From contig NW_026889782.1 in NCBI RefSeq assembly GCF_033153115.1, forward strand, positions 26,908,001 through 26,972,000: a DNA stretch of 64,000 bases, read 5' to 3'. The notes beneath the pieces were generated by a model that had not been told where the DNA came from, did not search any database, and saw nothing but the letters and a program-made list of their open reading frames with translations. This document shows positions 44,343 to 61,019 of this stretch, piece by piece. Made by a program: the position numbers and the translations under genes. This DNA is from Saccostrea echinata (taxonomy: Eukaryota). Each line of letters opens with the position of its first letter. Position 1 is the stretch's first letter.

Positions 44343-44686
44343 AGTAGTATAAAGGGGTTTTTTTCGTACCTAGTTTATACGCCCTGTTTTGGCGATACGC
44401 CCTGTTTTCGCTATACGCCTGGTTCTATAAAAGGATATGAGGAATATTGGTTTTCCGATAAACGAAACAGCGGGCAGTCTTTTGTGACCCTGGTTTTGCA
44501 ATAAAAGGATATGAGGAATATTGGTTTTCCAATAAACAAAACAACAGGCAGTCTTTTATGACCCTGATTTCGCTATACGCCCTGTTTTCACGATACGCCT
44601 TTTTTTAACAAGGGTGTATAGGAAAACTTAGTCTTATACGATATGGGTTTTTTTTTCTCCCCTATACTAGAGAGAAACTTAACACC
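44343..44686 (+). repeat. Left TIR of the Polinton
   Basis: Inverse match to 60551-61019; internal ATACGCCCTGTTTT motifs. Confidence 0.92.
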
Positions 44687-45374
44687 CGATTTTATTCGCT
44701 AAGAATTCTCACACCTCTTACCTTATGTGTTCTATATCTTTATTTTGTTAGAGATAGGGGAAAATGTTTAAAATTATTAGTTCGCCAGGCATAAGGCGAG
44801 AAAAACGATAAACTAATGTAAAAATAATATATATATATGGTTATTATTTCTATTAAAATTATTCAATACTAATGTAATTTGGTAAAGATTTTTTTTTTCT
44901 GTTAGTCGAATTTATCGGACCTGTAAGGAACTCTTTAATATGAGAAGGTAAAATTTTGGAATCGTCTGCTGTGTATGTACGGTATTTTGTAAGGTTATTG
45001 TTCCCCCTGCATGGAAAGTAAGCGACAAACACTCAACTCTTAGGGTGTCTTAAAAGGTGTGAAGATTTATGCTATAATCTACACGATTTTTTTTCTGTTA
45101 TTACCAACTCGATTTCACGTCCTGTTATGAGGACAAAAGAGGGTATATTATGTATAGATAACCTACTGACTCGATATTGACAAGGTGGTCTCGATCACTT
45201 TTTGTTACTTTACAATCAACATTAATTCCGAGATGCCCTGCTGAGCTAACGAAACTAATTACTTATCACTTTGCATTATAAACGCTCCTACAATGATTTT
45301 CATCAAAGAGATTCTCAAGGTCTCAGCAAATATTAAAGAGGTTTCGTTTAGACTTGGTTCATTTCATCATCAAA

Positions 45375-46049
45375 ATGGACTGGACAGAGAACATTGATAT
45401 AGATCCTCCAAGGGATGTACTAGAAAAAATTGATAGACTGGAAAGAGCCTACATAGCCAAAGAGGTAAATATTTTTCTTTGTATTATTAAATGTGTCTTG
45501 ATACGAATAATAGATTTACATCAAGAAGATTTTCTTACATATAATCAAAAAAGAAAACGCTAAAATAAAAAAAAAAAAAATCACGCAGTTATTTAGTTTG
45601 ACGATTTTTATCTTAACAAAAATTAAAAGGAAACTGATAGGAAACGGTCAAAAAAAATATCGACTGTTGAGTTTTGGTTCGATAAAACGACATCGATATT
45701 TATTATCGTTTATATTTAAGAGTTGTTTTTACGTGTGATTAATACATTATGGTACTTTTTTTTAAAAAATAACTATGATATTCCTTTATGAAATTTAATC
45801 GGTTTTACATCTAATCATTTTCATAACCGAGTTTAAAAAAATCGTTTAATAATGAGAAAAAAATTTAAGCATCGAAATTTCTTTCTTAGAAATTCAAACA
45901 AAATAGACGAAATGGGGAAGAAAAGAAAGAAGCATCTGAAGTATATATTTTGTTTATATATTTGTTATAGGTATACAAATAAATTAAACAAAAGTTTTGA
46001 ATCGATATTACATGTATAAATATATATATATTTTTTCAATGTTTATATT

Positions 46050-46080
<31 letters not shown>

Positions 46081-46791
46081 AATGACCGAGTTAAAAAGCA
46101 TCGTCTAAAATGGAGAGAAAAAATAAAATTGAAATTCCTTTCTTAGAAATTCAAAGAAAATACTGGAAATGGAGGGGAAAAGAAAGAAGATTCTGAGGTA
46201 TATTTTGTCCGATGTGTAGAAATAATTAAACAAAATGACAAAGAAAAAAAATCTGATAAAACGATTAATTTTTATCATTGTTAATATTTAACAGTTAATT
46301 TTATTGTGTAATTCATACTTTATAGTACATTTTTTTAAAGACCTATGATATACCTTTATGAAATTTAGTCAATTTTCATCTATGTATTTTAATGATCGAG
46401 TTATTAAAGAATTTATAAAATCGAGAGAAAAAAAAATTTAGCATTGAAATTTGTTTCCTAGAATATCGAAGAAAAAAGACCAATACAGAATAAGGACGAA
46501 TCTGAGGTACATTTTGTCTGAATACATTTAATATATGCAACTGTTCACCCAATTTAATCGTGCAATTATTTTATCCTTATACTTACTGTAGAACGAAGAA
46601 AGACGGGTGGGCTTTTTCATGGTTTCATCTAAAAAGAAAAGTCCTGTACGTACCTTTGTCTGGTTGATTACAAGAATTTGTGTATCTATTTTAATCGAGC
46701 AACAAAATCATGCATTTTTTTTTTATTTATTTAGGGAAAAGGAAAGAAATTAACAAAGAAAGACGAGTAGGGCAAAGCGAAGCAAAGTAAG
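45375..46791 (+). CDS. Putative spliced micro-exon gene or pPolB 5' exons (45375-45464, 45890-45940, 46147-46197, 46462-46506, 46592-46645, 46735-); highly charged product
   Basis: Purine-rich blocks bounded by YAG/GT; first four are phase 0 and stop-free; the 3' join is unresolved. Confidence 0.55.
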
Positions 46792-46992
46792 GTATACATG
46801 TATATATATTTACACGTCATCTGAAACATTCCGTTATAGATGAAATTCTTAATCCCTTGTTATAATTTTTTTTTTTTTTTTACGCAGACTCGGAAACCTT
46901 CTCACAAGGTCAAACCTCTGAATTATATAATAATCGATTAAGTTTAGGGTAGTGGGCAGAGTTCTAGAGACAGACCATCGACCTCCTATGAC

Positions 46993-49900
46993 ATGACCTC
47001 AGACGAAACATCACAGAGTTCATTAGACAGACCCTCAACCTCCTATGACACGACCTCTGACCAGGATGAAACATCATCCGACAATGACAGTCAAACGGAC
47101 GATGACCCTGCGTTACAATTCCTACTGAAAAAGTACGAGAGACTCATAAACAGACCCCACCAAGAAGGTGTAATTCAAAAAGAATACAATTTTGCTGCGC
47201 ACAATTTTAATCTTTCTTATGACGATCTCGAAAAACAATTGAACGACATATACCAAACTGAAAAGCATGCCTTTAAAATCAACTTTTCTCTCGGAATTGT
47301 GTTGAGAAACACGGAAGGCGAACTGCGATATTTTTATGCTTCTGGAAATGACTCCTTGTTAAACGAACCTTATCAGATATCAAATAAGAAAGACTTAGAT
47401 AATTTAATCTTGATTTTAAGGAACAAAGATCTTTTGCAGATAGCGTTACAGTCGCGCCCGAACTCAAAATGGAGCGTTTATGTCGTCACAAACATTAGAT
47501 CGGTGGTCGTCAGAACGAATTATATTTTAGGGGCGGGTCGTAAGCTACCGGACTATGTCAAAAATAAAAAGTGCATTATCGCACTGAACACCAACAGCGT
47601 CGATGGTAGTTTAATTGAAGACAATTTATGTGCTTTCCGATGCTTGGCTTACCACCGAACACAAAATAGGAAAGGTCTAGAAAGACTTACTTTGAAATAT
47701 TACAGAGAATTTTTTGGCCATAGGGTAACCAAACGTACCAAATTTAATGGGCTCACCCTTGAGGACATTCCTCATTTCGAAAACAATTTTGATATCAATG
47801 TCAATATATTTCAATTGTTCGAGGACCAAACCTGCGTCCACATTTATCGTTCACGTGGAGTGTTTCAAGACACGATGAACTTAAACCTATTCGAAGACCA
47901 TCTCAGCTACATAAAAAATCTAGATGTGTATTGTAAGAAGTACGAGTGTCGAAATTGTAAAACTCTTTTCCCCACACAAGGTAAAGTCACCCGCCATGAA
48001 AAACGCTGCAAAGAGGCTACTAGGTTCATATATCCAGGGGGTTACTATGCCCGACCGCGACATATTTTTGAAGAACTCGAATATTTAGACAGTAAAGTAG
48101 ACAATGACTTGCGGTTTTATCCTTTTTTCATTACATATGATTTTGAAGCGATTCTTCAAACAGATGATCTACCCCCCGCGACACAAAAATCTACTTGGGC
48201 TCAAGAGCATCGACCCGTATCATTTTCGATATGCTCCAATGTTCCGGGACATGTAGATCCCGTTTGTCAAATGGATTCGGACGTCAATAGCTTAATTCAA
48301 AAGTTTGTACTTGCCGCAAGTAAAATACAGTCTACAGCTCAGAAGTACATGCGAGCCCGTTTTGCAAATGTTTTGAAAAAGCTTTCCCTCGAATCTAAAA
48401 AATTACAAGAACTTTCTGAAGAAATCTTACATAGAGACGATGACAGTGATGACGAGGATGACGATGACGACGAGAGACAAGCCATAAACACGCCCCTTTT
48501 ATGTCACATTAAACGAATACAGGCCAAACTCGACACTTACATCAATGAGATACCGGTCTTAGGGTACAATAGTTCCAAGTACGATTTGAATTTAATAAAA
48601 ACCAAATTTGCGGAATGTTTGAAACTACCTCAAAGTAAGAAAAATTTTGTTGTTAAAAAGTGCAATCAGTACATGTGTATTAGTAATGGCCAATTCAAAT
48701 TTCTAGATATCAGTAATTTTGTAGCACCAGGGTTTTCCTACGACATGTTCATCAAATCCTACGAAATAGAGTTGCATAAATCGTTTTTTCCTTACGAGTT
48801 TCTCACGTCGTTTGATAACCTGGAGCATACGCAGCTTCCACCCTACGAAGCTTTTTACTCTTCCCTTAAAAACTGTAATGTGCTAAACGAAGAACACGCG
48901 CGATTTCGTCGCTTAGTCGTCGACGAACAACACCCCGTTGCCGTCGCATTGAAAAAAATGAATCTAAAGAAACCGCCTCCTACCGGACCGGAGAATTACG
49001 AAAAACTTCGCGCTTTATGGGAGGAACGCGGCATGCGCACTCTCAAAGATTATCTCGAATATTACAATAATCTGGACGTACTTCCCTTCTGTCAGGCGGT
49101 GTCAAAGATGCTCCGTTTTTACACATCGCGGAATATTGATCTATTTAAGACATGCCTCAGCGCGCCCGGGGTAGCAAGGGAAATCATTTTTCAATCTGCC
49201 GCCGGAAAAGGACATTTCGCGTGCTTTGATGCCCAAAATAAAGACTTGTATAGTATCTTTGGGAAGGGAATGTGTGGTGGTCCCGCCATCATTTTTCATC
49301 GCTACCACGAGAGGTATAAAACATTCATTCGGAAAAATGTCAACCAAATTTGTAAGAAAATCGTAGGGTACGATGCTAATGCCTTGTATTTATGGGCACT
49401 CAGTCAAGACATGCCCACCGGTCCTTTTACTATTAGAAAAGAAGAAAACAATTTTCAGCTAGTCAAACGAGATCGCTATTTAAAAGCTTTGTATTTCTTA
49501 GAATGGTTAAGACACAGTCGAGGTGTCAATATTGATCATTACTTTAACGCGGGCAAAGAGTTCCGTATTGGTCCGTATCGAGTAGACGGTTATTCTAGAG
49601 CAGAGAAAAAAGTATACGAATTTAACGGTTGCTACTTTCATCGACACAAATGCGCTCTGACTGCTCACATTCAGGACCCTAAATGGTTAAAGGATCAAAA
49701 AAAAGTTCAGAAACGCGAGCAAGAGCGAACAGAATACATTAAAAACCAAGGCTATGACATAGAAATCACCTGGGAATGCCAATACGAGAATTGGTTAAAA
49801 ACGTCCCCCGAATTTAAAAGATTTATTGAAGAGCAACGCCGAAAGCGCCCTCTAGAACACCGAACGACATTAACCAAGTCTGAAATCTTAACCGCCATTC

Positions 49901-51075
49901 GCGAGAAAAAAATATTCGGCGCCGCAGAAGTCGATATACACGTCCCCGATCATCTTTTAGACAAATTTCAAGAAATGTCCCCCATTTTTTGCAATGCCGA
50001 AATTCCATTTGAAGCTCTCGGACCATATTCTCAGGAAACGGCACAAAAATTAAATTTGGGAGAAAAACCGCGACGGTTATTAGTCGGAGGTATGCGCGCG
50101 CGTAAAATTCTACTGGCTACCCCTCTCTTAAAGTGGTATTTAGAACACGGTCTTATCGTTTCGCGCATATATCAAGTTATAGAATTCACCCCTAGCCCCT
50201 GTTTTTCCGATTTTACGAGCGAAGTTAGCAATGCTCGTCGTCGCGGTGATAGTGATCCGCGTTTTGAAATATTCGCGGATACCATGAAACTCATTGGAAA
50301 CAGCGCGTACGGATCAATGATCATGAATAAAGAAAAACACACGGAAATTACTTATTGTGCGACGAAAGAAAAAGCAGGATGTTTTGCCTCTAAAAAACGG
50401 TTCCGAACATTGACCGAACTCAATAATAATCATTTCGAAATCGAGCTTGCTAAATCGCGCATAAACTTGGATTTACCAATACAAATAGGATATTTCGTGC
50501 TTCAATATGCCAAGCTGCGTATGCTCGAGTTCTATTATGACTGCGTCGATAAATTTTGTAGCCGTCAAGATTTCGAATTGATGTCCATGGACACAGACTC
50601 TCTATATATGGCCATATCAGCTGAAAAGTTTGAGGACATAATTAAACCCGACATGAAACCCCTTTTCAAACGGGAAAAAAATCAATGGTTTCCTCGCACA
50701 GAACCTGTTGAGGCGGCATCCTTTGATCGTCGCGAACCTGGTTTGTTTAAGGAAGAGTTTGTAGGGACGGGCATGGTAGCCCTTTGCAGCAAAACCTATT
50801 GCGTGGAAAATAATCTAGAACTTAAAAAGAGTAAATTCAGTTGTAAAGGTTTAAATAAAAACAATTTCAGCCACCCTCTGTCTTTATATAAACGTGTATT
50901 GTTCGATAATACCACGGCCGGTGAGACGAATCGCGGTTTCCGCGCCCGAAATAACACGATCTTTACTTACACTCAACGACGACAGGGACTGACTTCTTTT
51001 TATCCTAAGCGCAAGGTCTTGTCTGACGGAGTGTCGACAACCTATCTTGAAATGGAACTGTGCCCATGGGACTAG
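46993..51075 (+). CDS. pPolB: Protein-primed family B DNA polymerase with N-terminal TP/vOTU-like region, Zn finger and internal VSR-like nuclease
   Basis: Exo motifs YDFE, YNSSKYD, YNNLDV; pol motifs YDANALY, KLIGNSAYG, MDTDS; DNLC..H; CRNC..H...C; YRVDGY..YEFNGCYFH. Confidence 0.97.
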   Translation: MTSDETSQSSLDRPSTSYDTTSDQDETSSDNDSQTDDDPALQFLLKKYERLINRPHQEGVIQKEYNFAAHNFNLSYDDLEKQLNDIYQTEKHAFKINFSLGIVLRNTEGELRYFYASGNDSLLNEPYQISNKKDLDNLILILRNKDLLQIALQSRPNSKWSVYVVTNIRSVVVRTNYILGAGRKLPDYVKNKKCIIALNTNSVDGSLIEDNLCAFRCLAYHRTQNRKGLERLTLKYYREFFGHRVTKRTKFNGLTLEDIPHFENNFDINVNIFQLFEDQTCVHIYRSRGVFQDTMNLNLFEDHLSYIKNLDVYCKKYECRNCKTLFPTQGKVTRHEKRCKEATRFIYPGGYYARPRHIFEELEYLDSKVDNDLRFYPFFITYDFEAILQTDDLPPATQKSTWAQEHRPVSFSICSNVPGHVDPVCQMDSDVNSLIQKFVLAASKIQSTAQKYMRARFANVLKKLSLESKKLQELSEEILHRDDDSDDEDDDDDERQAINTPLLCHIKRIQAKLDTYINEIPVLGYNSSKYDLNLIKTKFAECLKLPQSKKNFVVKKCNQYMCISNGQFKFLDISNFVAPGFSYDMFIKSYEIELHKSFFPYEFLTSFDNLEHTQLPPYEAFYSSLKNCNVLNEEHARFRRLVVDEQHPVAVALKKMNLKKPPPTGPENYEKLRALWEERGMRTLKDYLEYYNNLDVLPFCQAVSKMLRFYTSRNIDLFKTCLSAPGVAREIIFQSAAGKGHFACFDAQNKDLYSIFGKGMCGGPAIIFHRYHERYKTFIRKNVNQICKKIVGYDANALYLWALSQDMPTGPFTIRKEENNFQLVKRDRYLKALYFLEWLRHSRGVNIDHYFNAGKEFRIGPYRVDGYSRAEKKVYEFNGCYFHRHKCALTAHIQDPKWLKDQKKVQKREQERTEYIKNQGYDIEITWECQYENWLKTSPEFKRFIEEQRRKRPLEHRTTLTKSEILTAIREKKIFGAAEVDIHVPDHLLDKFQEMSPIFCNAEIPFEALGPYSQETAQKLNLGEKPRRLLVGGMRARKILLATPLLKWYLEHGLIVSRIYQVIEFTPSPCFSDFTSEVSNARRRGDSDPRFEIFADTMKLIGNSAYGSMIMNKEKHTEITYCATKEKAGCFASKKRFRTLTELNNNHFEIELAKSRINLDLPIQIGYFVLQYAKLRMLEFYYDCVDKFCSRQDFELMSMDTDSLYMAISAEKFEDIIKPDMKPLFKREKNQWFPRTEPVEAASFDRREPGLFKEEFVGTGMVALCSKTYCVENNLELKKSKFSCKGLNKNNFSHPLSLYKRVLFDNTTAGETNRGFRARNNTIFTYTQRRQGLTSFYPKRKVLSDGVSTTYLEMELCPWD

Positions 51076-51384
51076 TCCATTGTTTGTGTATATACCCCCT
51101 TTGTTTTAGTCCATAGAATAGCCCTCCGGATGAGTCCATTTTTAGGGGAAGGGGAACTAACTTTTATGTTAATTTGTTATGTCCCTATATTTTGACTAAA
51201 ATTTTATAAATTTGTAAATTAAAGACAATGATAACAAAGATAGTATTCATTGTAAATAAATAAAAACTGAATATATTTTTTTCCGTTTATATATAAAAGA
51301 AAGGTTATAACCCTGCCTCCTCCTCACCCCTTCTTTTTCCCATCACCCTTAGTTTTTTAGGTTTCTTGTGTTTTATTGAGGAGG

Positions 51385-52297
51385 ATGGCGACGTTAATGA
51401 TTCTGCTTAGTTTAGTGTTTGTGGTACAGGGAGATTTTTCGAAATCTTGCCTATCTAAGGGAAAAGTTCTCCTCTGTGAGAAGGTTGAGGGTAATCTAAC
51501 ATGTCAGAATGCCGGAGTCAAACTGCTGAATGCTGAGAGACTTGTAATGACAAATCCCAAGATTGAGAAAGTGGACATCACCAGCCAGTGCCTCCCCAAG
51601 CTGCGGACAGTTGAAATCGTGAGATCGGGGATGATGAATTGTTCTGACTTTGCAACGTTCTCACTGGTCATCATCAACAGGAGAGTTTGTGTATACACAG
51701 TAAGTTCATTTTTTTTTTCGATGTAATTATTGTATATTTCTGTATTTATTTTTATTATTATATTTTGTAAAACTCATATTAATAAGACATAATATTTCAT
51801 GTAGACATCCAGCACACCACGGATCGTCTCAGGAAAACCTCCAGCAGACTCGAAGAGCTCGTCGTCAACAACTGCAGTGACTCCGTACAATGTGACGGTC
51901 ACCATGGTGACAGAGACCACTACTGTGGAGAACGCGACCCTGCAGTCAACACTGCATTTCTTCCCAAGAGACAGCGACAAAACAAAAGAAGGTACTTACT
52001 TAAAATTCTATTTATGATGGCATGCATAATTACATGCATATGATTATTACGTTTTTTTAAAAAAAAATAATAATAATAATATTTTTACATGTAGATGTGG
52101 CGTTACGGGCAGTCGTCATTACTCTCAGTATTTTATCCGTATTACTGATCATCCTGGTGTTTGTCCTGTTGAAGTGGAAACGTTGTAGACGTAGTCGAGG
52201 AAGAAAACTGCCGATGGCTGAGGATCTGGGGAGTTCTGAAGTGGTGTTCCTGCGTTCAGCAAGCAGGAATCCGTACTCCGAAACAAAGTTTGAGTGA
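51385..52297 (+). CDS. Three-exon type I membrane glycoprotein, 234 aa (exons 51385-51699, 51805-51991, 52095-52297)
   Basis: GT-AG introns, phases 0 and 1, splice in frame; signal peptide, 6-Cys domain, S/T stalk, TM helix, basic tail; TATATAAAA at ~51290. Confidence 0.85.
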
Positions 52298-52750
52298 CTT
52301 GACATTTTGACTCTCTCTCATTCTGTACAGTGATTTTATTTTTTTTTTTTCCTAATTGTATGCTATTTTTGATGATAAAGCGTTATGTGCTATATGTAAA
52401 ACAAGATAGTTATTTTTCTTTTTTTTTTTTTGTAGCGTATTTTAATATTGAAGTGATTTTTCTGTTTGGTATTTTTTTTTCTTTAAAACATTTGCTTTTT
52501 AACTTATATGGAGAATCTTAGCGATTACCTTTTATATATTTTTTTTCAAAACAATATTTGCTGTTTTATTTAAAAAAAAAAATGTTATTAACATTTAATC
52601 GATAACAACAAATTATCAGAGTTATTTTGCGCAATCCAATAATTGTGTACATAAAAATAAACCTGCTTTTTAGTGTGGCATATTTTCCATTTGAATAATT
52701 AAAACACACAAGTTTTCTGACTTTCTTTTATTACTGTTGTTATATTACAA

Positions 52751-52933
52751 TCACAAGGACATCCATTTGCTGGGAATTTTCACGCCTGGTGGGGCATCCT
52801 TTCTTCCAGCGACACCTAGTCTTTTTGTCAGTGGTTTTTCCGGAGATTTCTGTGTCGTTTTTGTACTCACAGCGGGTACTGCTTTCAGTCGCTGGTACTC
52901 ATCTTTAGGTATTAACACGAACTCAGTGGACAT
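52751..52933 (-). CDS. Small Polinton protein
   Basis: MSTEFVLIPKDEYQRL start, overlaps the stop of the upstream gene in the minus-strand block. Confidence 0.55.
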   Translation of the reverse strand: MSTEFVLIPKDEYQRLKAVPAVSTKTTQKSPEKPLTKRLGVAGRKDAPPGVKIPSKWMSL

Positions 52934-53243
52934 ATTTTGCAAGGTCTGGAAGCAAAGGTTTTAGTAAGACAGGAAGAAATCCGTGGCGTCGGAGTAACAG
53001 ATTCTTTTTGTTTCTGCCCTTCTTCTTAGCTAATCGACGCAGAATATGTCGATACTTGTAGAGATTTTTGATGAAGGATTCGGAGGGTAAAATCTCACGA
53101 TTATGAATAACGTTATAAATCACTTCTAAGAGAGTCTTTAACTGCTTGACACTGATCGTCTTTAATAACACTCGGCGTTGTCTGACGCTTGTAGTGGCTA
53201 GCTAGTTTAAAAAGGCCCAGTTCTGACGAAGGCGGTCGCTCAT
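52923..53243 (-). pseudogene. Basic Polinton protein with in-frame TAG at 53204-53202
   Basis: ATG overlaps the ATPase stop (ATGA); MSDRLRQNWAFLN*LATTS..QLKTLLEVIYNV. Confidence 0.7.
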
Positions 53244-53908
53244 GTTTTTCTCATGTAAACGATCAATAGGTCACCTGGAAATATCCCTGTGCGCAGCGCA
53301 TAATCTCTGCGTCCGCTCACGGATAGGTCCACCAATAAATAAGAATAAGGTTTTTGCGTCGCCTTTTCATATGCGTCGAGAAAATACGACTTGTTTTGCG
53401 GATAGAGTTGGGTAGCTAAGAATTGAACTTGAAAATTATCTCGGGGGTTTTTGAAAAGAACGAGGTATTGACAATTTAATGAAATGACTCGACTGTACTT
53501 GCCTTGAGGAAACAAATTTTGAGAAATAAATATGACAGATATATTCATATGATGCACGTGAATAGTAAATAACTCCATATAATCAAAGGACTGAATGACT
53601 CGGTATACTAGATCATCCAAAACGAGTAAGAATTCCCCGCTCTGCGCAAATTCCTCCAGGTCTTGTTTTGAGGGTAAACCCTCGTAAAATATAACAGATG
53701 AATTGTGGTCCCGTATTTCTTGAAAAGCCGGTTGCCATTTTGAATACGCATACACAATCTTTTTAAGCGGTTTTGATAGAATCCCTTTGTCAAGATTATC
53801 TAAGATTCGTTGCGTAAATCGAGTTTTGCCACTCTGACTGGGACCACTCACAAACAAAGAGAAAGGCACCTTCAAAGCAAAATCACTGGGGTTCATGGTT
53901 TCATTCAT
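53240..53908 (-). CDS. A32/FtsK-like genome packaging ATPase
   Basis: Walker A GPSQSGKT, Walker B LLVLDD, FISQNLF, SLNCQYLVLFKNPRD. Confidence 0.95.
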   Translation of the reverse strand: MNETMNPSDFALKVPFSLFVSGPSQSGKTRFTQRILDNLDKGILSKPLKKIVYAYSKWQPAFQEIRDHNSSVIFYEGLPSKQDLEEFAQSGEFLLVLDDLVYRVIQSFDYMELFTIHVHHMNISVIFISQNLFPQGKYSRVISLNCQYLVLFKNPRDNFQVQFLATQLYPQNKSYFLDAYEKATQKPYSYLLVDLSVSGRRDYALRTGIFPGDLLIVYMRKT

Positions 53909-53955
53909 TTATTTCTTTTTTAATCTCAACATTTGACTTATATACAGACACAAAG

Positions 53956-54198
53956 ATGAATCACGACTCAATGTGGGGTATAAGAGAAAATGTGGATGTC
54001 AACTGGAAAGGAAAACGAAAAATCAGATGTCATATTGACACGTCTCATTTTGTAACTGTGTCTAGGAGAAAAAATCGGTATTACGTTAAAATCAGGAAAG
54101 GGAAGCGAGATCTTTCCTTATCGCCTGAGATGTGGGCTGTGATATGCGATCTAAAAGAAACGGTGTTACTGTGTTGTAATTTTTTGGAAACTAGTTAA
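53956..54198 (+). CDS. Small PC4-like protein
   Basis: FVTV....YVKIR....LSLSPEMW resembles PC4 YVSV....IDIR...ISLNPEQW. Confidence 0.6.
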   Translation: MNHDSMWGIRENVDVNWKGKRKIRCHIDTSHFVTVSRRKNRYYVKIRKGKRDLSLSPEMWAVICDLKETVLLCCNFLETS

Positions 54199-54200
54199 AA

Positions 54201-55331
54201 ATGGTTTTATCCGCGGAACTACGAGACTATTTAACTTCATTGTATTTCAACCCCGAAAAACCGGGAGCATTCAGAAGTCCGCTTCAGTTATGGCGACAAG
54301 AAAATCAGTATAAGATCGGGCTACCCAGAATTAAGCAATGGTTACAAAATCAAGATGTCTATTCAATGAACAGAACCGTACGTCGTCGTTTTAAGAGACC
54401 ACGGGTTTTCACGGGTGGAATAAAAGATCAGTATGACGCCGACTTAATGGATGTCGGATTTCACTCCAAAGAAAACGATGGAATCAAGTATTTATTGGTT
54501 GTGATCGACGTGTTTACTCGTTATGTGTGGGTATGCGCACTGAAAAATAAAACGAGCTCCAATGTATTAAAAGGTCTCAAAAATTGTTTTCAAAACTTGG
54601 GTTTTCCTCGCAAAATAAGAACAGATGCCGGAAAGGAATTCACGGCACATCTCGTTCAAAATTATTTAAAATCAGTCGAGGTTACACACTTTACTACTCA
54701 AGGAGAATCGAAGAGCAACTTTGTGGAACGCGTAATCAGAACACTGCGCAGTTTAATGCACAGATATATGAAAAAGACGCGTTCGTTTAGATATATTGAT
54801 AAACTACAGACATTGGTAACGAATTACAACCACACCCCTCATAGATCGTTGGGTTATAAAGCACCGAGTGAAATTAATGAGACTAATGAAGTCGATCAAA
54901 TTATTTTGCAATATTTTAAACCTCCTGTCAAGCGGAAAATAAAGAAAGTATCAAAACTGGCCAAGAAATTGCGATCGTCTTTTCGATTTAAGGTGGGTGA
55001 TACTGTGCGCATATCGCATTTGAAACATGTGTTTGAAGGCGAATTCATGGAGAAATTTACTGGCGAAGTGTTTAAGATAAAATCCCGATTTTTGAAACAA
55101 AATATCCCAATGTACAAGCTACAGGATTTAAGAAACGAAGATCTGACGGGTAGTTTTTATGAACAAGAACTACAGAAAATAGAAAAACCGGAAGACACAT
55201 TGTGGGAAGTGGAAAAAATATTGCGTAAAAGACGTCGAAATAATCAGACTTATGTTCTTATTAAGTGGTTGAATTTCCCTCGAAGTTTTAATAGTTGGGT
55301 GCCAGAGAGAGAAGTACAAGAGCTGGTTTAA
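54201..55331 (+). CDS. INT: Retroviral-like (rve) integrase with C-terminal chromodomain
   Basis: ADLMD, IDVFTR, TDAGKEF, VERVIRTL; WEVEKIL...VLIKW......NSWVP. Confidence 0.97.
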   Translation: MVLSAELRDYLTSLYFNPEKPGAFRSPLQLWRQENQYKIGLPRIKQWLQNQDVYSMNRTVRRRFKRPRVFTGGIKDQYDADLMDVGFHSKENDGIKYLLVVIDVFTRYVWVCALKNKTSSNVLKGLKNCFQNLGFPRKIRTDAGKEFTAHLVQNYLKSVEVTHFTTQGESKSNFVERVIRTLRSLMHRYMKKTRSFRYIDKLQTLVTNYNHTPHRSLGYKAPSEINETNEVDQIILQYFKPPVKRKIKKVSKLAKKLRSSFRFKVGDTVRISHLKHVFEGEFMEKFTGEVFKIKSRFLKQNIPMYKLQDLRNEDLTGSFYEQELQKIEKPEDTLWEVEKILRKRRRNNQTYVLIKWLNFPRSFNSWVPEREVQELV

Positions 55332-55335
55332 AGAA

Positions 55336-55728
55336 ATGGATTATTACATGGTCATTTCAGAGACAGACTTTTTAAATTATTATCCAAATAATACGCCTAA
55401 TGATTTCCGCGTTCACACGCCGAACACTAGGTTAAGGGGTCGGTGGTACGTGGGGCTCTGCGAAATGAGTATTGAAGTAGAACGGGAATGTGAAATATTA
55501 ATACTGTCGGATATCTGTTCAGATACACTGGTAGGGGGTGAGAAGAAACCTTTATTAAAGAGAATGAGGTTACAGAGTGGACAAAATGACGTCGCGTTCC
55601 AGCGCATCATGTATATTCCTATCGTCGTGACCGATTTTCATTCCATCAGAGTATATCTGGAGAGCCCAGTACTAACAAAACCAAAGGTGACTTTTGTGCT
55701 TCATTTTAAAAAATATCCTTTCATTTAA
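55336..55728 (+). CDS. PX: Minor capsid protein (penton, single jelly-roll), minimal form
   Basis: YPNNTPNDF ... WYVGLCE ... SDI....VG....PLL ... YIP ... VLHF. Confidence 0.85.
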   Translation: MDYYMVISETDFLNYYPNNTPNDFRVHTPNTRLRGRWYVGLCEMSIEVERECEILILSDICSDTLVGGEKKPLLKRMRLQSGQNDVAFQRIMYIPIVVTDFHSIRVYLESPVLTKPKVTFVLHFKKYPFI

Positions 55729-55730
55729 GC

Positions 55731-56057
55731 ATGCGCTCTTCGAAAGTGTATGTGGCAGACACGAAGAAATGGACAGATTTTTTTGTTAGTACGGCCGCTA
55801 CGCCCATTTCACATAATTCGTTACGACAGAGTGGGGGGAACTTGGGAAACGGCAGCATTAATACCACTGCCATAGTACCCATTGATTCCGGTCGCAACTT
55901 GCGAGGTGGGGGGGAAAGTCCCTCACCGGAAATCACCCTCGTCTCGCCCACACAACGAGATTTACAACAAGCCAAGTCAGAATTGCGTCGCGTAAAGCCT
56001 AAAAAGAGGAAAAGGACGTGTAAAAAAGCTAAACATTCCGATAATTTTGATTATTAA
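55731..56057 (+). CDS. Small basic protein, candidate core protein or protease substrate
   Basis: QSGG and LRGG motifs, LVSP, K/R-rich C-terminus; tightly packed in the structural block. Confidence 0.6.
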   Translation: MRSSKVYVADTKKWTDFFVSTAATPISHNSLRQSGGNLGNGSINTTAIVPIDSGRNLRGGGESPSPEITLVSPTQRDLQQAKSELRRVKPKKRKRTCKKAKHSDNFDY

Positions 56058-56058
56058 G

Positions 56059-56502
56059 ATGGAACCCGAAAGAGATGTCGCGTCGGATCTCATGATTAGA
56101 AAGAAACAATACGCAAGAGCCGTCAAAGTCACCGGAGTGTTGTTACTGCTGATACCGTTTTTCATTGTATTTGGAATGACGATAGACATTTGGAATAACA
56201 CACAGGCCTCTCCCCTGACCGTTAACGATACCAGAGCTTTTAACGCGACTCTCTGCGATTTTTTAAAATCGTTTCCTTTGACTGAGGCGGTGCATGTTAG
56301 CGTCTGCGTTTATCAGGGCTCCGTTCTAATTGATTTGAGACGTTTTTTGAATAATAAACCAACGATTAAAGGAATACAATTAAACCCCATTCAATGGCAG
56401 TACCTGAAAAGAATTTGGCCTTACATCGATCAGAGCTTAGTGCTGGCATCGAGACGCGATTTCTCTGCGCATAAAAGGGCAGAGAAGACTTCTCACAGTT
56501 AA
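56059..56502 (+). CDS. Membrane-anchored PC4-domain protein (147 aa)
   Basis: Basic N-terminus, TM VTGVLLLLIPFFIVFGMTI, sequons NNT/NDT/NAT, then VSV..YQGSVLIDLRRF...PTIKGIQLNPIQW..LK.....ID. Confidence 0.85.
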   Translation: MEPERDVASDLMIRKKQYARAVKVTGVLLLLIPFFIVFGMTIDIWNNTQASPLTVNDTRAFNATLCDFLKSFPLTEAVHVSVCVYQGSVLIDLRRFLNNKPTIKGIQLNPIQWQYLKRIWPYIDQSLVLASRRDFSAHKRAEKTSHS

Positions 56503-56510
56503 GATCCAAA

Positions 56511-57821
56511 ATGACGAGTCACGCATACGAAGACATTCAGGAAGGATTGCCCAGGGAACTACTGTTGTTTAATTTACCAGTGACGCAGACAGCTGTGACT
56601 CGTAACTATTACGTAGATTATAGACCCGTTTCTCAGATAAGCGAAAACGGACCCGTAGAATTCAGCGTACCCGGGACAGGAGATTATCTGGACTTTAAAA
56701 AAAGTTTGTTATATGTTAAAGCGCGAATCCTCAAAGCGAATGGTTCAGCTCTTGAGGCGGACGAGAAAGTCGGTCCTGTGAATAATTCTTTGCACAGTTT
56801 CTTTAATCAGGTGGACATTTCGTTAAACGGGAAACAGTTCCCGAGTAGTGGCGGGGCGGCCTATGCTTATAAAGCTTACCTACAGAATTTGTTAAATTAC
56901 GGAGAAGAGGCAAAACAATCCCAGCTTCAATGTAGCTTGTTTTTCAAGGATGATGCTGGTTATATGGATGTCGCGGACCCTAACGGTGCTAATTCCGGGT
57001 TGTACTCGCGCACCGTTTTCTGTTAAGAAAGTTCGTCTTTTGATTTAGAAGGGCCCATTTTAGAAGATGTGTGTCGACTCGATCGTTTTGTGTTAAACGG
57101 AGTAGACGTTAACATCAAATTGTATAGACAAAACTCGTCGTTCTGTCTCATGTCCGCCGAGGCGGATCCGCAGTACAAAATTGTCTTTGATGACGTCATA
57201 TTCCGGGTTTGCAGAGTACAGGTGTCGCCAGGTATCATAGTGGGGCACACAAAGGCTTTAGAAACGACTACAGCTAAATATCCCTTGATTAACACAGACG
57301 TAAAAGTGGCCTCTATTGCTGCAGGGCAAACCCGATTCATCTGGGATAACATTTATTTGACCCGCTGTCCCAGTAAAATCGTTCTCGGACTGGTCTCTAC
57401 GGAGGCCCAGACAGGGAGTTATGTGAAAAACCCTTTTAATTTTCAAACCTTTGGCGCTCGTCATGTCGGCGTATTTGTCAATAATGTGAGTGTTCCCGGG
57501 CAGCCTTATAAAATAGAAGAAAACTGTTACATCTCAGCTTACCACAGTTTATTTGATATTGTCGACAAATCCCAAATCGATTCCGGAAACAATATTGATC
57601 GAGACGATTGGAAGTATGGCTACTGCCTTTACGGCTCTTCGTTACAACCCCAGTTTGGAAACACAGATACCCTTTCTTTAATGAATCAAGCAAGCGTTCG
57701 ACTAGAACTAGCCTTCGAGCAGGCACTGACAGAAACCGTTTCCTGCATCCTGTATGCTGAATTCCCCTCTTTTTTTGAGATAGACAATACTAGAAATGTA
57801 ATTCTTAACTCTATATCATGA
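56511..57821 (+). pseudogene. PY: Major capsid protein (double jelly-roll, 436 codons) with a single in-frame TAA at 57024-57026
   Basis: LLLF..P.TQ, GPVEF, PVNN.LHS.F.QVD, YAYKAYLQNLLNY, NGVDV.IKL, GSY.KNPFNF; ORFs 56511 and 57069 share a frame. Confidence 0.93.
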
Positions 57822-58279
57822 ACGGATACCTCATTTCTGACCTATGTCGTTTAGATTTAGTTTTAGCTTCCCAGTTTGAGGGTGTATTTTCTCCGGATAA
57901 TTTACCTTTGAATGTTGACCACTATCCCCGTGCTTATATCGTTAACACTACATTTTCTACTACAGCCGGAGAACACTGGATAGCACTCTATTTTAGTTCT
58001 TCTCAACACTGTTACGTATTTGATAGTTATGGTAGGGACCTGAGTAGTTTGCCGTCTCAGATACACTCCTTTGCTGCTCGCAATTCATTTTCATGTACAT
58101 ATAATACGCTTATAATGCAAGACGTAGCTAGTCAAACGTGTGGACTGTATTGTATATTATTCATGCTAGTAATGAGTAGAATCTGTAATCTATCTGTATT
58201 TCAACGACTCTTTTGTGATGACTTGATCCAAAACGATGTTTTTGTGTACCGCATTCTTTATACATTATACAATCTTTGA
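57818..58279 (+). CDS. PRO: Adenain-like cysteine maturation protease
   Basis: GEHW, FDSYG, Q.....TCGLYC catalytic motifs; ATGA overlap with MCP stop. Confidence 0.95.
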   Translation: MNGYLISDLCRLDLVLASQFEGVFSPDNLPLNVDHYPRAYIVNTTFSTTAGEHWIALYFSSSQHCYVFDSYGRDLSSLPSQIHSFAARNSFSCTYNTLIMQDVASQTCGLYCILFMLVMSRICNLSVFQRLFCDDLIQNDVFVYRILYTLYNL

Positions 58280-58490
58280 GCTTTATCTCTCCTTCTATAT
58301 AGTACAATAAACTGATAACACCTTTGTGACAGATTTTATTTAATGATAAGAAAAAAAAATATATTGAGTGACAGATTTTATTTAATGATGAGGAAAAAAT
58401 ATACATAGTACAATAATTCTCAGAGTCTCTTTACATAAAACGCCACTGTTATATACACAGTAAAAAGTATAGTCCAACAGAAAAAAAAAA

Positions 58491-59192
58491 TCACTCAGAT
58501 AATTTAGACAGTTCAGATTGAAAGGCCTGGTCCTCCCTAGCATCGCGCAGGTATTTCTCCCCGTCCGATTCATCCCCATTGATTTCCTCGAACTCCCTCA
58601 CAATGACATCTTCCGGAATATTGTTCATACAATCTTGAAGGTACATGTCCCTCTTTTCCTCCCACGAAGATAGGCAGCCCATTTCCATGTGCTGTTTCTG
58701 GCTGGGATGATCCGTCAGGCATCCGTGGCAACGTTCCTTAGATTTACACGAAACCATCTTCCTCAGGATTTTCGTGATGATGGATTTCATGCACTGATCC
58801 ATCTGCTCGACTTCTTGATATGTCTCTTGGAATTTTCCCCATTCATTTTCGTTGAGTGCGATGCCAAATTTAGTAGGAAGGGCTGGATCTACGTGGAAAT
58901 TAAACACTCTAAAGTCCACGATGATAACGTTGCTGTCGGGGAATCTCTTCGCCGTTACCCGCTTGTTTCCCTCCTCGTTTCTCTGTAAGTCCCAAGTCTT
59001 AGACGGCGTTGAAGAGTTTTCTCTCAGTTTCTTTACATGCGCGTGAATTTCACTGATAATGTTTATCAGCAGCAACCACTCGGAGGCGGAGAAGGATATT
59101 TTCTTTTCCGGTTGGTCCACATTGTTCAGTCTTATTCTCTTCTCTTTCTGGTAGATGCCAGTCGTGAAAGTGATTCGCTCACTCAGGAACAT
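58491..59192 (-). CDS. Tandem PC4-like domain protein with C-terminal Cys/His motif
   Basis: KISFSASEW and IVDFRVF.....PTKFGIALNENEW PC4-like repeats; CHGC..DHPSQKQH...GC; first ATG at 59192. Confidence 0.8.
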   Translation of the reverse strand: MFLSERITFTTGIYQKEKRIRLNNVDQPEKKISFSASEWLLLINIISEIHAHVKKLRENSSTPSKTWDLQRNEEGNKRVTAKRFPDSNVIIVDFRVFNFHVDPALPTKFGIALNENEWGKFQETYQEVEQMDQCMKSIITKILRKMVSCKSKERCHGCLTDHPSQKQHMEMGCLSSWEEKRDMYLQDCMNNIPEDVIVREFEEINGDESDGEKYLRDAREDQAFQSELSKLSE

Positions 59193-59204
59193 GATTAATG
59201 TCGT

Positions 59205-59236
59205 ACTGAAAATGACTAGTGTGAAGGTTTTAAATA
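59205..59236 (-). promoter_or_regulatory. Putative TATA + Inr core promoter
   Basis: TATTTAAAA (59236) lies 29 nt upstream of the A in TCAGT (59207), just before ATG 59192. Confidence 0.45.
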
Positions 59237-59285
59237 ATATCCAGGCTGTGATGTCATCGGTCAAAAGGTGTTAAACTATATGATG

Positions 59286-59723
59286 TCATCTATATCCAAT
59301 CACAGTCCAGCTTAATTCCTGGCGGTGACGTCGGCGCATTTTTCTAACAGCTATGTCCATTCTTTTAAAGAAATGTTCCGGAGTGAAAAATCGTTCCTCG
59401 TCGAAATATTCTGAGAATATTTCTCGAAAGCATTCAATGATATTACATCCCATATGGCATGTAGAGGTCTCGTGCCAGGGCAAATCCAGGTCCTCGACTG
59501 TTTGTCCTCGGTCTATCCAGACTCTGCAATTGATGGCCTCTTGTGTAATCATTAAATTACGCGCGATTCTCGATAGCAATTGTGGTCTTTCAAATTGTCT
59601 AGATTTTTTGATGTAATAATATACATCTTCGTAAATCTGCTTCTCTCTGTCAAACAAACTTAACTCCAGTGAGAAACTAGCTAGATCTCGCAAAGGAAGA
59701 ACTTCGGTAAACATACGATACAT
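59286..59723 (-). CDS. Polinton hypothetical protein (145 aa)
   Basis: ATG-initiated ORF with the composition of the neighbouring viral genes; no recognised motif. Confidence 0.6.
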   Translation of the reverse strand: MYRMFTEVLPLRDLASFSLELSLFDREKQIYEDVYYYIKKSRQFERPQLLSRIARNLMITQEAINCRVWIDRGQTVEDLDLPWHETSTCHMGCNIIECFREIFSEYFDEERFFTPEHFFKRMDIAVRKMRRRHRQELSWTVIGYR

Positions 59724-60550
59724 GATCAGTAATATTTGTGTTGGTTTGCATCTGTTTCTTTTATTCAGATTCGCCCTTATTGATTAGTTTTCCGATTTCC
59801 CACAATATTCTAAAAGAAGAAATTCCATAATAATAGAAAAAGTCTTTTATGTCTTACAAGTCGTTAATATAACGCATACTTGGGACCGTTGCTCGTAACA
59901 ATAATTTTTTTCTCACCTTCCGTTGATGACCACATTTAATTACCTGTTTTAACCCATAGGGGGTCAAGTACATTTTCTTATCTTTTGATATAAAATACTT
60001 TTGTTATATAACGGTATTCACGATTATTGATTCATTCCACGATTTCTCAAAGGGAAAGAGATTCCATAATAAAAGAGTTGTTAATGTAATGTCTAGTTGA
60101 AAAGTTATTCGGAACAATAACTTTTTCTCACCTTCTTATGGTCGTTGCTTGTCTACTCAGATTTAATTAACTGACTTTACCTAGTATGAGATGTCAAATC
60201 TTCTTCTCTTCATTGCATTGTACTTTCCTACAATTTCTTACGAGTTCTGATCAAAATCGGTGACAGTTACTTTCTCTTTGGAGGGTTAACTGCATTTCAC
60301 CTAACGGTTTGAAATTTTCTGTAGCAATGGGTAATAATTGATTGTGAACATCATTTTTATTACGAAGTATGTAGATACTTTTAATAATCACATTCTGCTG
60401 TTTTCCTTTATGAAATCATTCTAAAATCAAATGTATATCTTTGAACGTTTAGAAATTTTTACTGAAATTAAGTGCTTCGTTTAATCCTGGTTCAACTGTG
60501 TATTTCATTCTATTCAGTTTAATTATACTACAAGTTTCTATTGTAAACAA

Positions 60551-61019
60551 GGTGTTAAGAATTGCTCGACTAGTATAGTGAGGAAAAAAATGTATAAGAT
60601 TCCGAAAACACCATCTCATAGTGAAAACAGGGCGTATAGCAAAACCAGGGTCCCGAAAGACTGCATGCTGTTTTCTTTATTAGAAAACTAATATTCAACA
60701 TTAAGTTTCCTTATACATCCTTGTTAAAAATAAGGCGTATCGTGAAAACAGGGCGTATAGCAAAACCAGGGTCCCGAAAGACTGCATGATGTTTTCTTTA
60801 TTAGAAAACTAATATTCAACATTAAGTTTCCTTATACATCCTTGTTAAAAATAAGGCGTATCGTGAAAACAGGGCGTATAGCAAAACCAGGGTCATAAAA
60901 GACTGCCCGCTGTTTCGTTTATCGGAAAACCAATATTCCTCATATCCTTTTATAGAACCAGGCGTATAGCGAAAACAGGGCGTATAAACCAGGTACGAAA
61001 AAAACCCCTTTATACTACT
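60551..61019 (-). repeat. Right TIR of the Polinton, including 121-bp tandem repeats
   Basis: Inverse match to the left end; units start at 60621, 60742, 60863. Confidence 0.92.

Follow-up and report, generated by a model that had tools for sequence, protein, structure and literature searches.

A widespread, apparently undescribed family of membrane-anchored PC4 proteins in Polintons, with a domain predicted to face the lumen or the cell exterior

Our analysis indicates that Polintons carry a membrane-anchored form of the PC4 domain that is real, widespread and, apparently, undescribed. The example studied here comes from the window, the 64,000-nucleotide stretch of Saccostrea echinata DNA that was analysed, and joins a basic tail, a single hydrophobic helix and a sequon-rich stalk to a PC4 fold (table 1). 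The original prediction had read a basic N-terminus (RKKQYARAVK), a 19-residue hydrophobic helix, three stalk sequons and a PC4 signature from the letters, and all of these stand: the basic run forms residues 14-23 of the 147-aa ORF, the best 19-residue Kyte-Doolittle window falls on residues 24-42 (mean 2.52), the sequons N46, N56 and N62 are all N-x-T, and residues 73-118 score 32.4 bits with PF02229 (cut-off 25; E 6.5e-8). N62-x-T64 is the sequon conserved in the family, with Asn at position 62 in 75 of 103 rows, and N46, some four residues past the end of the helix, is probably too near to it for glycosylation under the minimal distance rule. The cysteine pair C66/C83 is a feature that the earlier reading had not included. 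Human PC4 chains align with residues 72-125 (E 5e-5), and PF02229 is matched at E<=0.01 by 63 of the 104 members of the family alignment. An AlphaFold2 model from these 104 rows (mean pLDDT 88) displays a four-strand sheet plus a helix superposable on PC4; human PC4 (6ycs_A) is the top result of VIA-align against 48,161 chains (Z 8.1, rmsd 1.1 A, 61 residues), and the ten best Foldseek rows are all PC4/MoSub1 (best E 1.1e-3). The models also predict a homodimer: two copies of residues 56-135 reach 0.71 against 0.00 for the best control, with contact agreement of at least 91% and pLDDT of at least 79, although this may reflect memory of solved PC4 dimers. The mark applied was reached by 21/30 solved pairs and 0/23 single chains (17/29 and 0/30 in eukaryotes).

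The gene resides in a complete Polinton, in which terminal inverted repeats, AGT...ACT ends, a 6-bp duplication, an integrase, an A32 ATPase and an adenain protease are all present. Family and PDB searches gave no match naming the polymerase B and jelly-roll capsid genes; we take 46993-51075 to be the polymerase from its polymerase motifs and 56511-57821 to be the major capsid gene from its position and size, and 55336-55728 is presumably the minor capsid gene. The weak Vsr-like insert of the polymerase fits the pPolB2 subgroup, reported from marine molluscs and a nematode (10.1101/2023.08.22.554363). Placement of the anchored PC4 gene directly upstream of the major capsid gene holds in this copy, its stop lying 8 nt before the capsid ATG at 56511, but is limited to the window's lineage; elsewhere the gene follows the protease, precedes the integrase or lies beside the ATPase. 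A TAAG before three consecutive starts was considered as a late promoter and rejected: it amounts to a stop codon followed by G, and 17 relatives do not conserve it. The element also contains, at 51385-52297 (+), a likely three-exon gene for a type I membrane glycoprotein, its second predicted membrane glycoprotein, with a signal-peptide-like start, a Ser/Thr-rich part, a hydrophobic helix, a basic tail and GT/AG flanks (boundaries approximate); this gene is conserved within the window's lineage, and its exon 1 has no Pfam match. Short ORFs and probable introns occupy the ends of the element (44600-46990 and 59700-60600). The host flank includes transposase-like ORFs at 5533-7217 (-), weakly similar to Mutator (E 0.013), and a repeat that contains open frames, at 12662-13565 and 36463-36861, and the window has one N run (31994-32138).

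Table 1. Features of the Polinton and of its membrane-anchored PC4 gene (positions in the window)
Feature	Position	Strand	Basis
Complete Polinton/Maverick, 16,677 bp	44343..61019		AGT...ACT ends, terminal inverted repeats, 6-bp target-site duplication TGCGTA
Putative protein-primed polymerase B, Vsr-like insert at residues ~870-938 (pPolB2-like)	46993..51075	+	Insert matches at E 0.067 and E 1.5e-4
A32-like packaging ATPase	53240..53908	-	Pox_A32, E 4.4e-6
Retroviral-type integrase with chromodomain	54201..55331	+	rve, E 6.8e-15
Putative minor capsid gene	55336..55728	+	Position, conservation; no family match
Basic 108-aa gene	55731..56057	+	Position, conservation; no family match
Membrane-anchored PC4 gene, 147 aa	56059..56502	+	ORF, Pfam, human PC4 match, model; start context AAG ATG G
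N-terminal tail, residues 1-23, basic at 14-23 (predicted cytosolic)	56059..56127	+	Sequence and family flank charge
Hydrophobic helix, residues 24-42 (predicted signal-anchor)	56128..56184	+	KD mean 2.52; within model helix 7-49
Stalk, residues 43-65, sequons N46 (56194), N56 (56224), N62 (56242)	56185..56253	+	Sequence
Cys66, presumed disulfide partner of Cys83	56254..56256	+	Cys in 127/128 aligned domains
Cys83, aligned to DNA-contacting R75 of human PC4	56305..56307	+	Cys in 137/138 aligned domains
PC4 fold, residues 68-132 (predicted homodimer)	56260..56454	+	Pfam, Foldseek, models
Putative major capsid gene, in-frame stop in this copy	56511..57821	+	Position; no database match
Adenain-like protease	57818..58279	+	Peptidase_C5, E 3.3e-8
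Second, soluble PC4-like gene, without anchor	58491..59192	-	PC4, E 1.2e-4, below cut-off

A search of the source genome with this single protein gave 86 matches (a lower bound), and all 56 of the 86 that were inspected belong to the cysteine-bearing family, many as broken copies. More than 100 divergent clusters occur elsewhere, annotated where looked up as "hypothetical protein" and Polinton-borne wherever the context is visible, and a profile of 21 rows retrieves 813 representatives at E<=0.001. The best 150 of these 813 comprise 134 short proteins of the anchored type and 16 long multi-PC4 proteins. The anchor is kept in homologues, as had been expected: among the 134 short proteins, 111 have a hydrophobic segment (KD19>=1.6) before the domain, 102 of these anchor-bearing proteins also having a tail of at least 10 residues, and most of the remaining 23 start too near the domain to hold an anchor. 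The profile search favours query-like proteins, cysteines included, a bias of which the shuffle and tail controls given below are independent. Relatives with 20-45% identity again show the anchor, the cysteine pair and the excess of sequons, which is more than chance would produce. A distant subfamily is represented by 12 metagenome loci, not independent since several are near-duplicates; Polinton core genes adjoin in eight, and the other four are contigs of 1.2-2.2 kb. Relatives were found neither in viral_contigs (three queries) nor in GenBank phages, two family members gave no usable match in the ESM Atlas, and BFVD returned nothing at E<=0.001, its PC4-like rows including an adintovirus MOSUB at E 0.1.

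The gene can be missing from close relatives. An anchored-PC4 match lies within 15 kb of 53 of 141 ATPase loci (a lower bound; the 141 are the 150 scored of 457 candidates, minus split and duplicate rows), and in five of six CARD-PC4-bearing sister elements, picked by their ATPase, there is no such match in the ~3 kb upstream. Where an anchored PC4 is present beside CARD-PC4 genes, the distance is at most about 1 kb. Given its absence from close relatives and its variable position among lineages, the gene can be considered dispensable; on sequence evidence, it is old, widespread and dispensable. Some variants depart from the usual architecture: P0074, P0123 and P0177 have the anchor plus two tandem Cys-bearing PC4 domains, P0004-P0006 keep anchor, stalk and Cys pair and miss most of the PC4 core, and in the metagenome contig L106 (2924 bp) an anchored PC4, a soluble double PC4, a TBP gene (E 2e-27) and an integrase stand in a row. 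Many of the 457 ATPase candidates of genome G000 lie on contigs C5, C6, C33 and C36, and some of its ATPase ORFs, 560-580 aa long, form pairs in inverted orientation ~1.5 kb apart.

The type II topology proposed earlier, with a luminal or extracellular PC4 domain, is upheld by charge bias, by a sequon excess on the domain side and by the Cys pair. Hydropathy and charge counts identify a single internal anchor with a positive-inside N-flank, and of the 102 tailed proteins, 85 carry more positive charge in the N-flank than in the C-flank, 11 carry as much and 6 carry less. Sequons, too, are kept in homologues, with 220 on the domain side against 103+-9 in shuffles; after thinning to 83 of the 104 rows and masking of the conserved site, 124 are found against about 68, a number reached by 0 of 2000 shuffles. 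The N-x-T form is preferred on that side (127 vs 42.5 shuffled). No excess exists in the N-tails (21 sequons vs 24+-4 shuffled) or in 12 soluble Polinton PC4 ORFs (16 vs 15+-4), and the Cys pair is absent from soluble Polinton PC4 domains; sequon excess and paired Cys are confined to the C-terminal side. From these signals, the helix very probably inserts N-in/C-out, with the PC4 domain facing the lumen or the outside. A cleavable signal peptide is less likely, the N-tails being 8-62 aa long (median 30), and would leave the luminal reading unchanged.

Pooled dN/dS over eight pairs is 0.25 for the tail, 0.22 for the helix, 0.27 for the stalk and 0.18 for the domain, with dS near saturation and three sequences used twice, so that the pairs are not fully independent. 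These coding comparisons indicate that the anchored PC4 is under purifying selection, anchor included. Domain trees, with 62 columns and mostly open forks, were computed from a random sample of 45 of 141 anchored rows and 20 of 51 long multi-PC4 rows, the latter presumed cellular. In them, one group (0.86) contains 43 of the 45 sampled anchored domains, its sister (0.55) consists of 15 soluble Polinton domains, and a single anchored clade is not rejected (p-AU 0.62). The anchored form may have arisen once, perhaps by duplication of a soluble Polinton PC4.

What the domain still binds can be approached through its former DNA-binding face, of which K78 and K80 are contact positions in PC4. In human PC4, F77 and W89 are reported to stack on bases, the loss of either abolishing ssDNA binding, and R70, R75, D84, R86, P98 and K101 also contact DNA (PMC4350104). 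Across the anchored family, all 104 rows have Cys at the R75 position. The W89 position is aromatic in 7% of these rows, and both stacking positions in only one, whereas 52 of 58 domains from long multi-PC4 proteins have an aromatic residue at W89. Basic contacts are kept in 16% (K78), 11% (K80) and 45% (K101) of the 104 rows, D84 in 89% and R86 in 91%; within the source genome, K/R at K101 is found in 13 of 43 anchored domains versus 58 of 63 soluble ones. Of 102 members, 12 have a sequon in one binding hairpin and 33 in the other; none of 60 domains from long multi-PC4 proteins has a sequon there. The protein of the window has Y85 at F77 and L97 at W89, and thus an incomplete stacking pair; it keeps the D84, R86, P98 and K101 positions (its own residues including P101 and K104), has lost R70, R75, K78 and K80, and retains 5/10 scored DNA contacts. 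Soluble Polinton PC4s are themselves divergent at R70 (V in 15, R in 9 of 40 aligned) and are aromatic at W89 in about 22 of 56, where the alignment is uncertain; part of the contact loss is thus not specific to the anchored form. Also, since the F77 (as Y85), P98 and K101 positions are kept in the window's protein, some nucleic-acid or polyanion binding may remain. Overall, classical base-stacking ssDNA binding is probably lost or much reduced. The nucleic-acid receptor or decoy suggested at the outset is weakened in its canonical form, with R75 replaced by Cys throughout and both stackers in a single row, yet D84 and R86 remain.

These observations can be accommodated by the following mechanism. 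The helix would act as a signal-anchor, and the ectodomain would become glycosylated and disulfide-locked in the ER, the dimer then being displayed in the secretory pathway or at the cell surface. A C66-C83 disulfide would fasten the stalk, with its glycans, to one end of what was the DNA groove, and the retained D92/R94/T102 patch may bind a new, perhaps anionic, ligand. To the complete proposal drawn from sequences and models, that of an N-glycosylated type II protein which forms a disulfide-stabilised homodimer towards the lumen or surface and has an accessory host-interaction role instead of canonical ssDNA binding, we assign even chances. For a membrane glycoprotein that is dispensable and whose gene varies in position, the best fit is an accessory modulator of the host cell. 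By analogy with adenovirus E3, the protein could be a non-structural modulator of the host surface or secretory pathway, serving immune evasion or the exclusion of related elements, an assignment that we favour tentatively and at slightly less than even odds. Against an accessory role, many lineages have retained the gene, for the most part within the core block or next to it, which could mean a role in the virion. A bolder and more doubtful version is that a Polinton clade turned an ssDNA-binding fold into an extracellular receptor, with a disulfide-locked, glycan-fenced groove for a host ligand or extracellular nucleic acid, acting as attachment protein or immune decoy. If so, the PC4 superfamily would have its first member in the secretory pathway, and the protein would offer a handle on the movement of Polintons between cells and hosts.

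The outward topology is also shared by an alternative in which the domain still binds single-stranded nucleic acid or a polyanion such as heparan sulfate, in endosomes or at the surface, as a decoy for host sensors or as an uptake receptor. D84 and R86, kept in about 90% of members, K/R at K101 in 45%, the five of ten contacts remaining in the window's copy and the predicted dimer are consistent with it, and the CARD fused to PC4 in sister elements hints at an immune use of the fold; nonetheless, the aromatic residue at W89 is nearly always gone, R75 is always Cys and many members have sequons in the binding hairpins, and we consider it unlikely. Similarly, the protein could be an envelope or egress glycoprotein in a membrane around Polinton particles, for attachment or release. 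In the window's lineage its gene has virion genes as neighbours, and other lineages have it within the core block or next to it; its architecture is one of stalk and head, a third ectodomain Cys, present in 32 of 83 rows, might bridge the two subunits, and nematode Polintons encode a proposed fusogen (10.1101/2023.08.22.554363). Yet no fusogen-sized ORF occurs among the element's ORFs of at least 90 aa (a check of unspliced genes), the sister elements mostly lack a match, the capsid-block position is not conserved, and no upstream motif is common to anchored PC4 and capsid genes across lineages, which makes an envelope role improbable as well.

The membrane tether for the viral genome named in the original prediction would call for an inverted topology, with PC4 in the cytosol or nucleoplasm. 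PC4 folds are normally intracellular ssDNA binders (PMC7549692), and membrane-associated replication would help the element; however, such a placement is contrary to the charge bias, to the two-fold sequon excess with its N-x-T preference on the domain side only and to the near-invariant Cys pair, and the stacking residues are lost, so that we regard it as very improbable. Finally, that the hydrophobic stretch is incidental or bypassed by a downstream start yielding soluble PC4 is hardly tenable: a Met does lie between helix and C66 in 31 of 98 rows and three representatives have long non-hydrophobic N-termini, but helix and tail are under purifying selection, of the upstream starts in 17 relatives, 16 show a purine at -3 and 14 show G at +4, and the window's protein has no Met after residue 40.

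The expectation that such a protein was new agrees with the open literature and preprints searched, in which no earlier membrane-anchored PC4 was found in any element. Term searches of the main texts of PMC7549692, PMC8502044, 10.1101/2023.08.22.554363, PMC8097293 and PMC9223095 returned none, nor did the main text of 10.1101/2024.03.25.586562, whose supplementary maps could annotate one. The main text of the PC4-family review makes no mention of membrane or extracellular members (PMC7549692). A supplementary map labels a MOSUB gene in one adintovirus, from Branchiostoma (PMC8502044), and PC4-like genes in such elements had thus already been noted. The soluble PC4 genes of the source genome include double-PC4 and CARD-PC4 forms. 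The latter, at L036:3158-4168 (-), L113:2875-3909 (+), L123:2971-4017 (+) and in other G000 Polintons, combine a CARD (E 4e-14 to 5e-12), two PC4 domains and a Cys-rich end, and lie just downstream of the anchored PC4 in 10 of 15 elements; from their domains, they are possibly viral death-fold decoys or nucleic-acid-coupled adaptors. In scallop, two of five "PC4" genes are reported as single-exon, of 212 aa, and bivalves have up to 18 PC4 genes (PMC9223095). Such genes may be Polinton double-PC4 genes, and where invertebrate annotations show intronless "PC4 gene expansions", these may be of viral origin. With a large, selected family apparently moved into the secretory pathway, a nucleic-acid-binding domain would, unusually, have changed its compartment and probably its ligand. 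Polinton particles and their host interactions are largely unobserved, and a 147-aa surface protein that can be expressed alone would provide a route to a host ligand.

Among known systems, the fusogen of nematode Mavericks is likewise a membrane glycoprotein carried by Polintons (Widen et al., as discussed in 10.1101/2023.08.22.554363); its fold is unrelated, and the anchored PC4, at 147 aa, has no fusogen match. The C-terminal domain of human PC4/SUB1 and MoSub1 (PF02229; PDB 1pcf, 6ycs, 4usg, 4bhm) share with the anchored protein the fold, 39% identity, the D84/R86/G102/Q109/W110 positions and, going by the model, perhaps the homodimeric state. The anchored protein differs by an added N-terminal anchor, a sequon-rich stalk and a Cys pair (one at R75), by an aliphatic residue at the W89 position and the loss of basic hairpin residues, and by a predicted luminal instead of nuclear location. 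The soluble PC4 genes of Polintons and adintoviruses have the same fold, occur in the same elements, often as neighbours, and share a Thr at the G99/R100 position, but lack anchor, Cys pair and sequon excess and retain K101. In overall plan, the protein resembles the membrane glycoproteins of adenovirus E3 and the type II C-type lectins that serve viruses as decoys, which belong to related or analogous viruses, are small and dispensable and consist of a short tail, anchor, stalk and a disulfide-bonded dimeric head. This likeness is one of architecture only, no homology having been found and the head being PC4, not Ig or lectin. Expressed alone, the anchored PC4 would let one ask whether Polintons modulate immunity as adenoviruses do.
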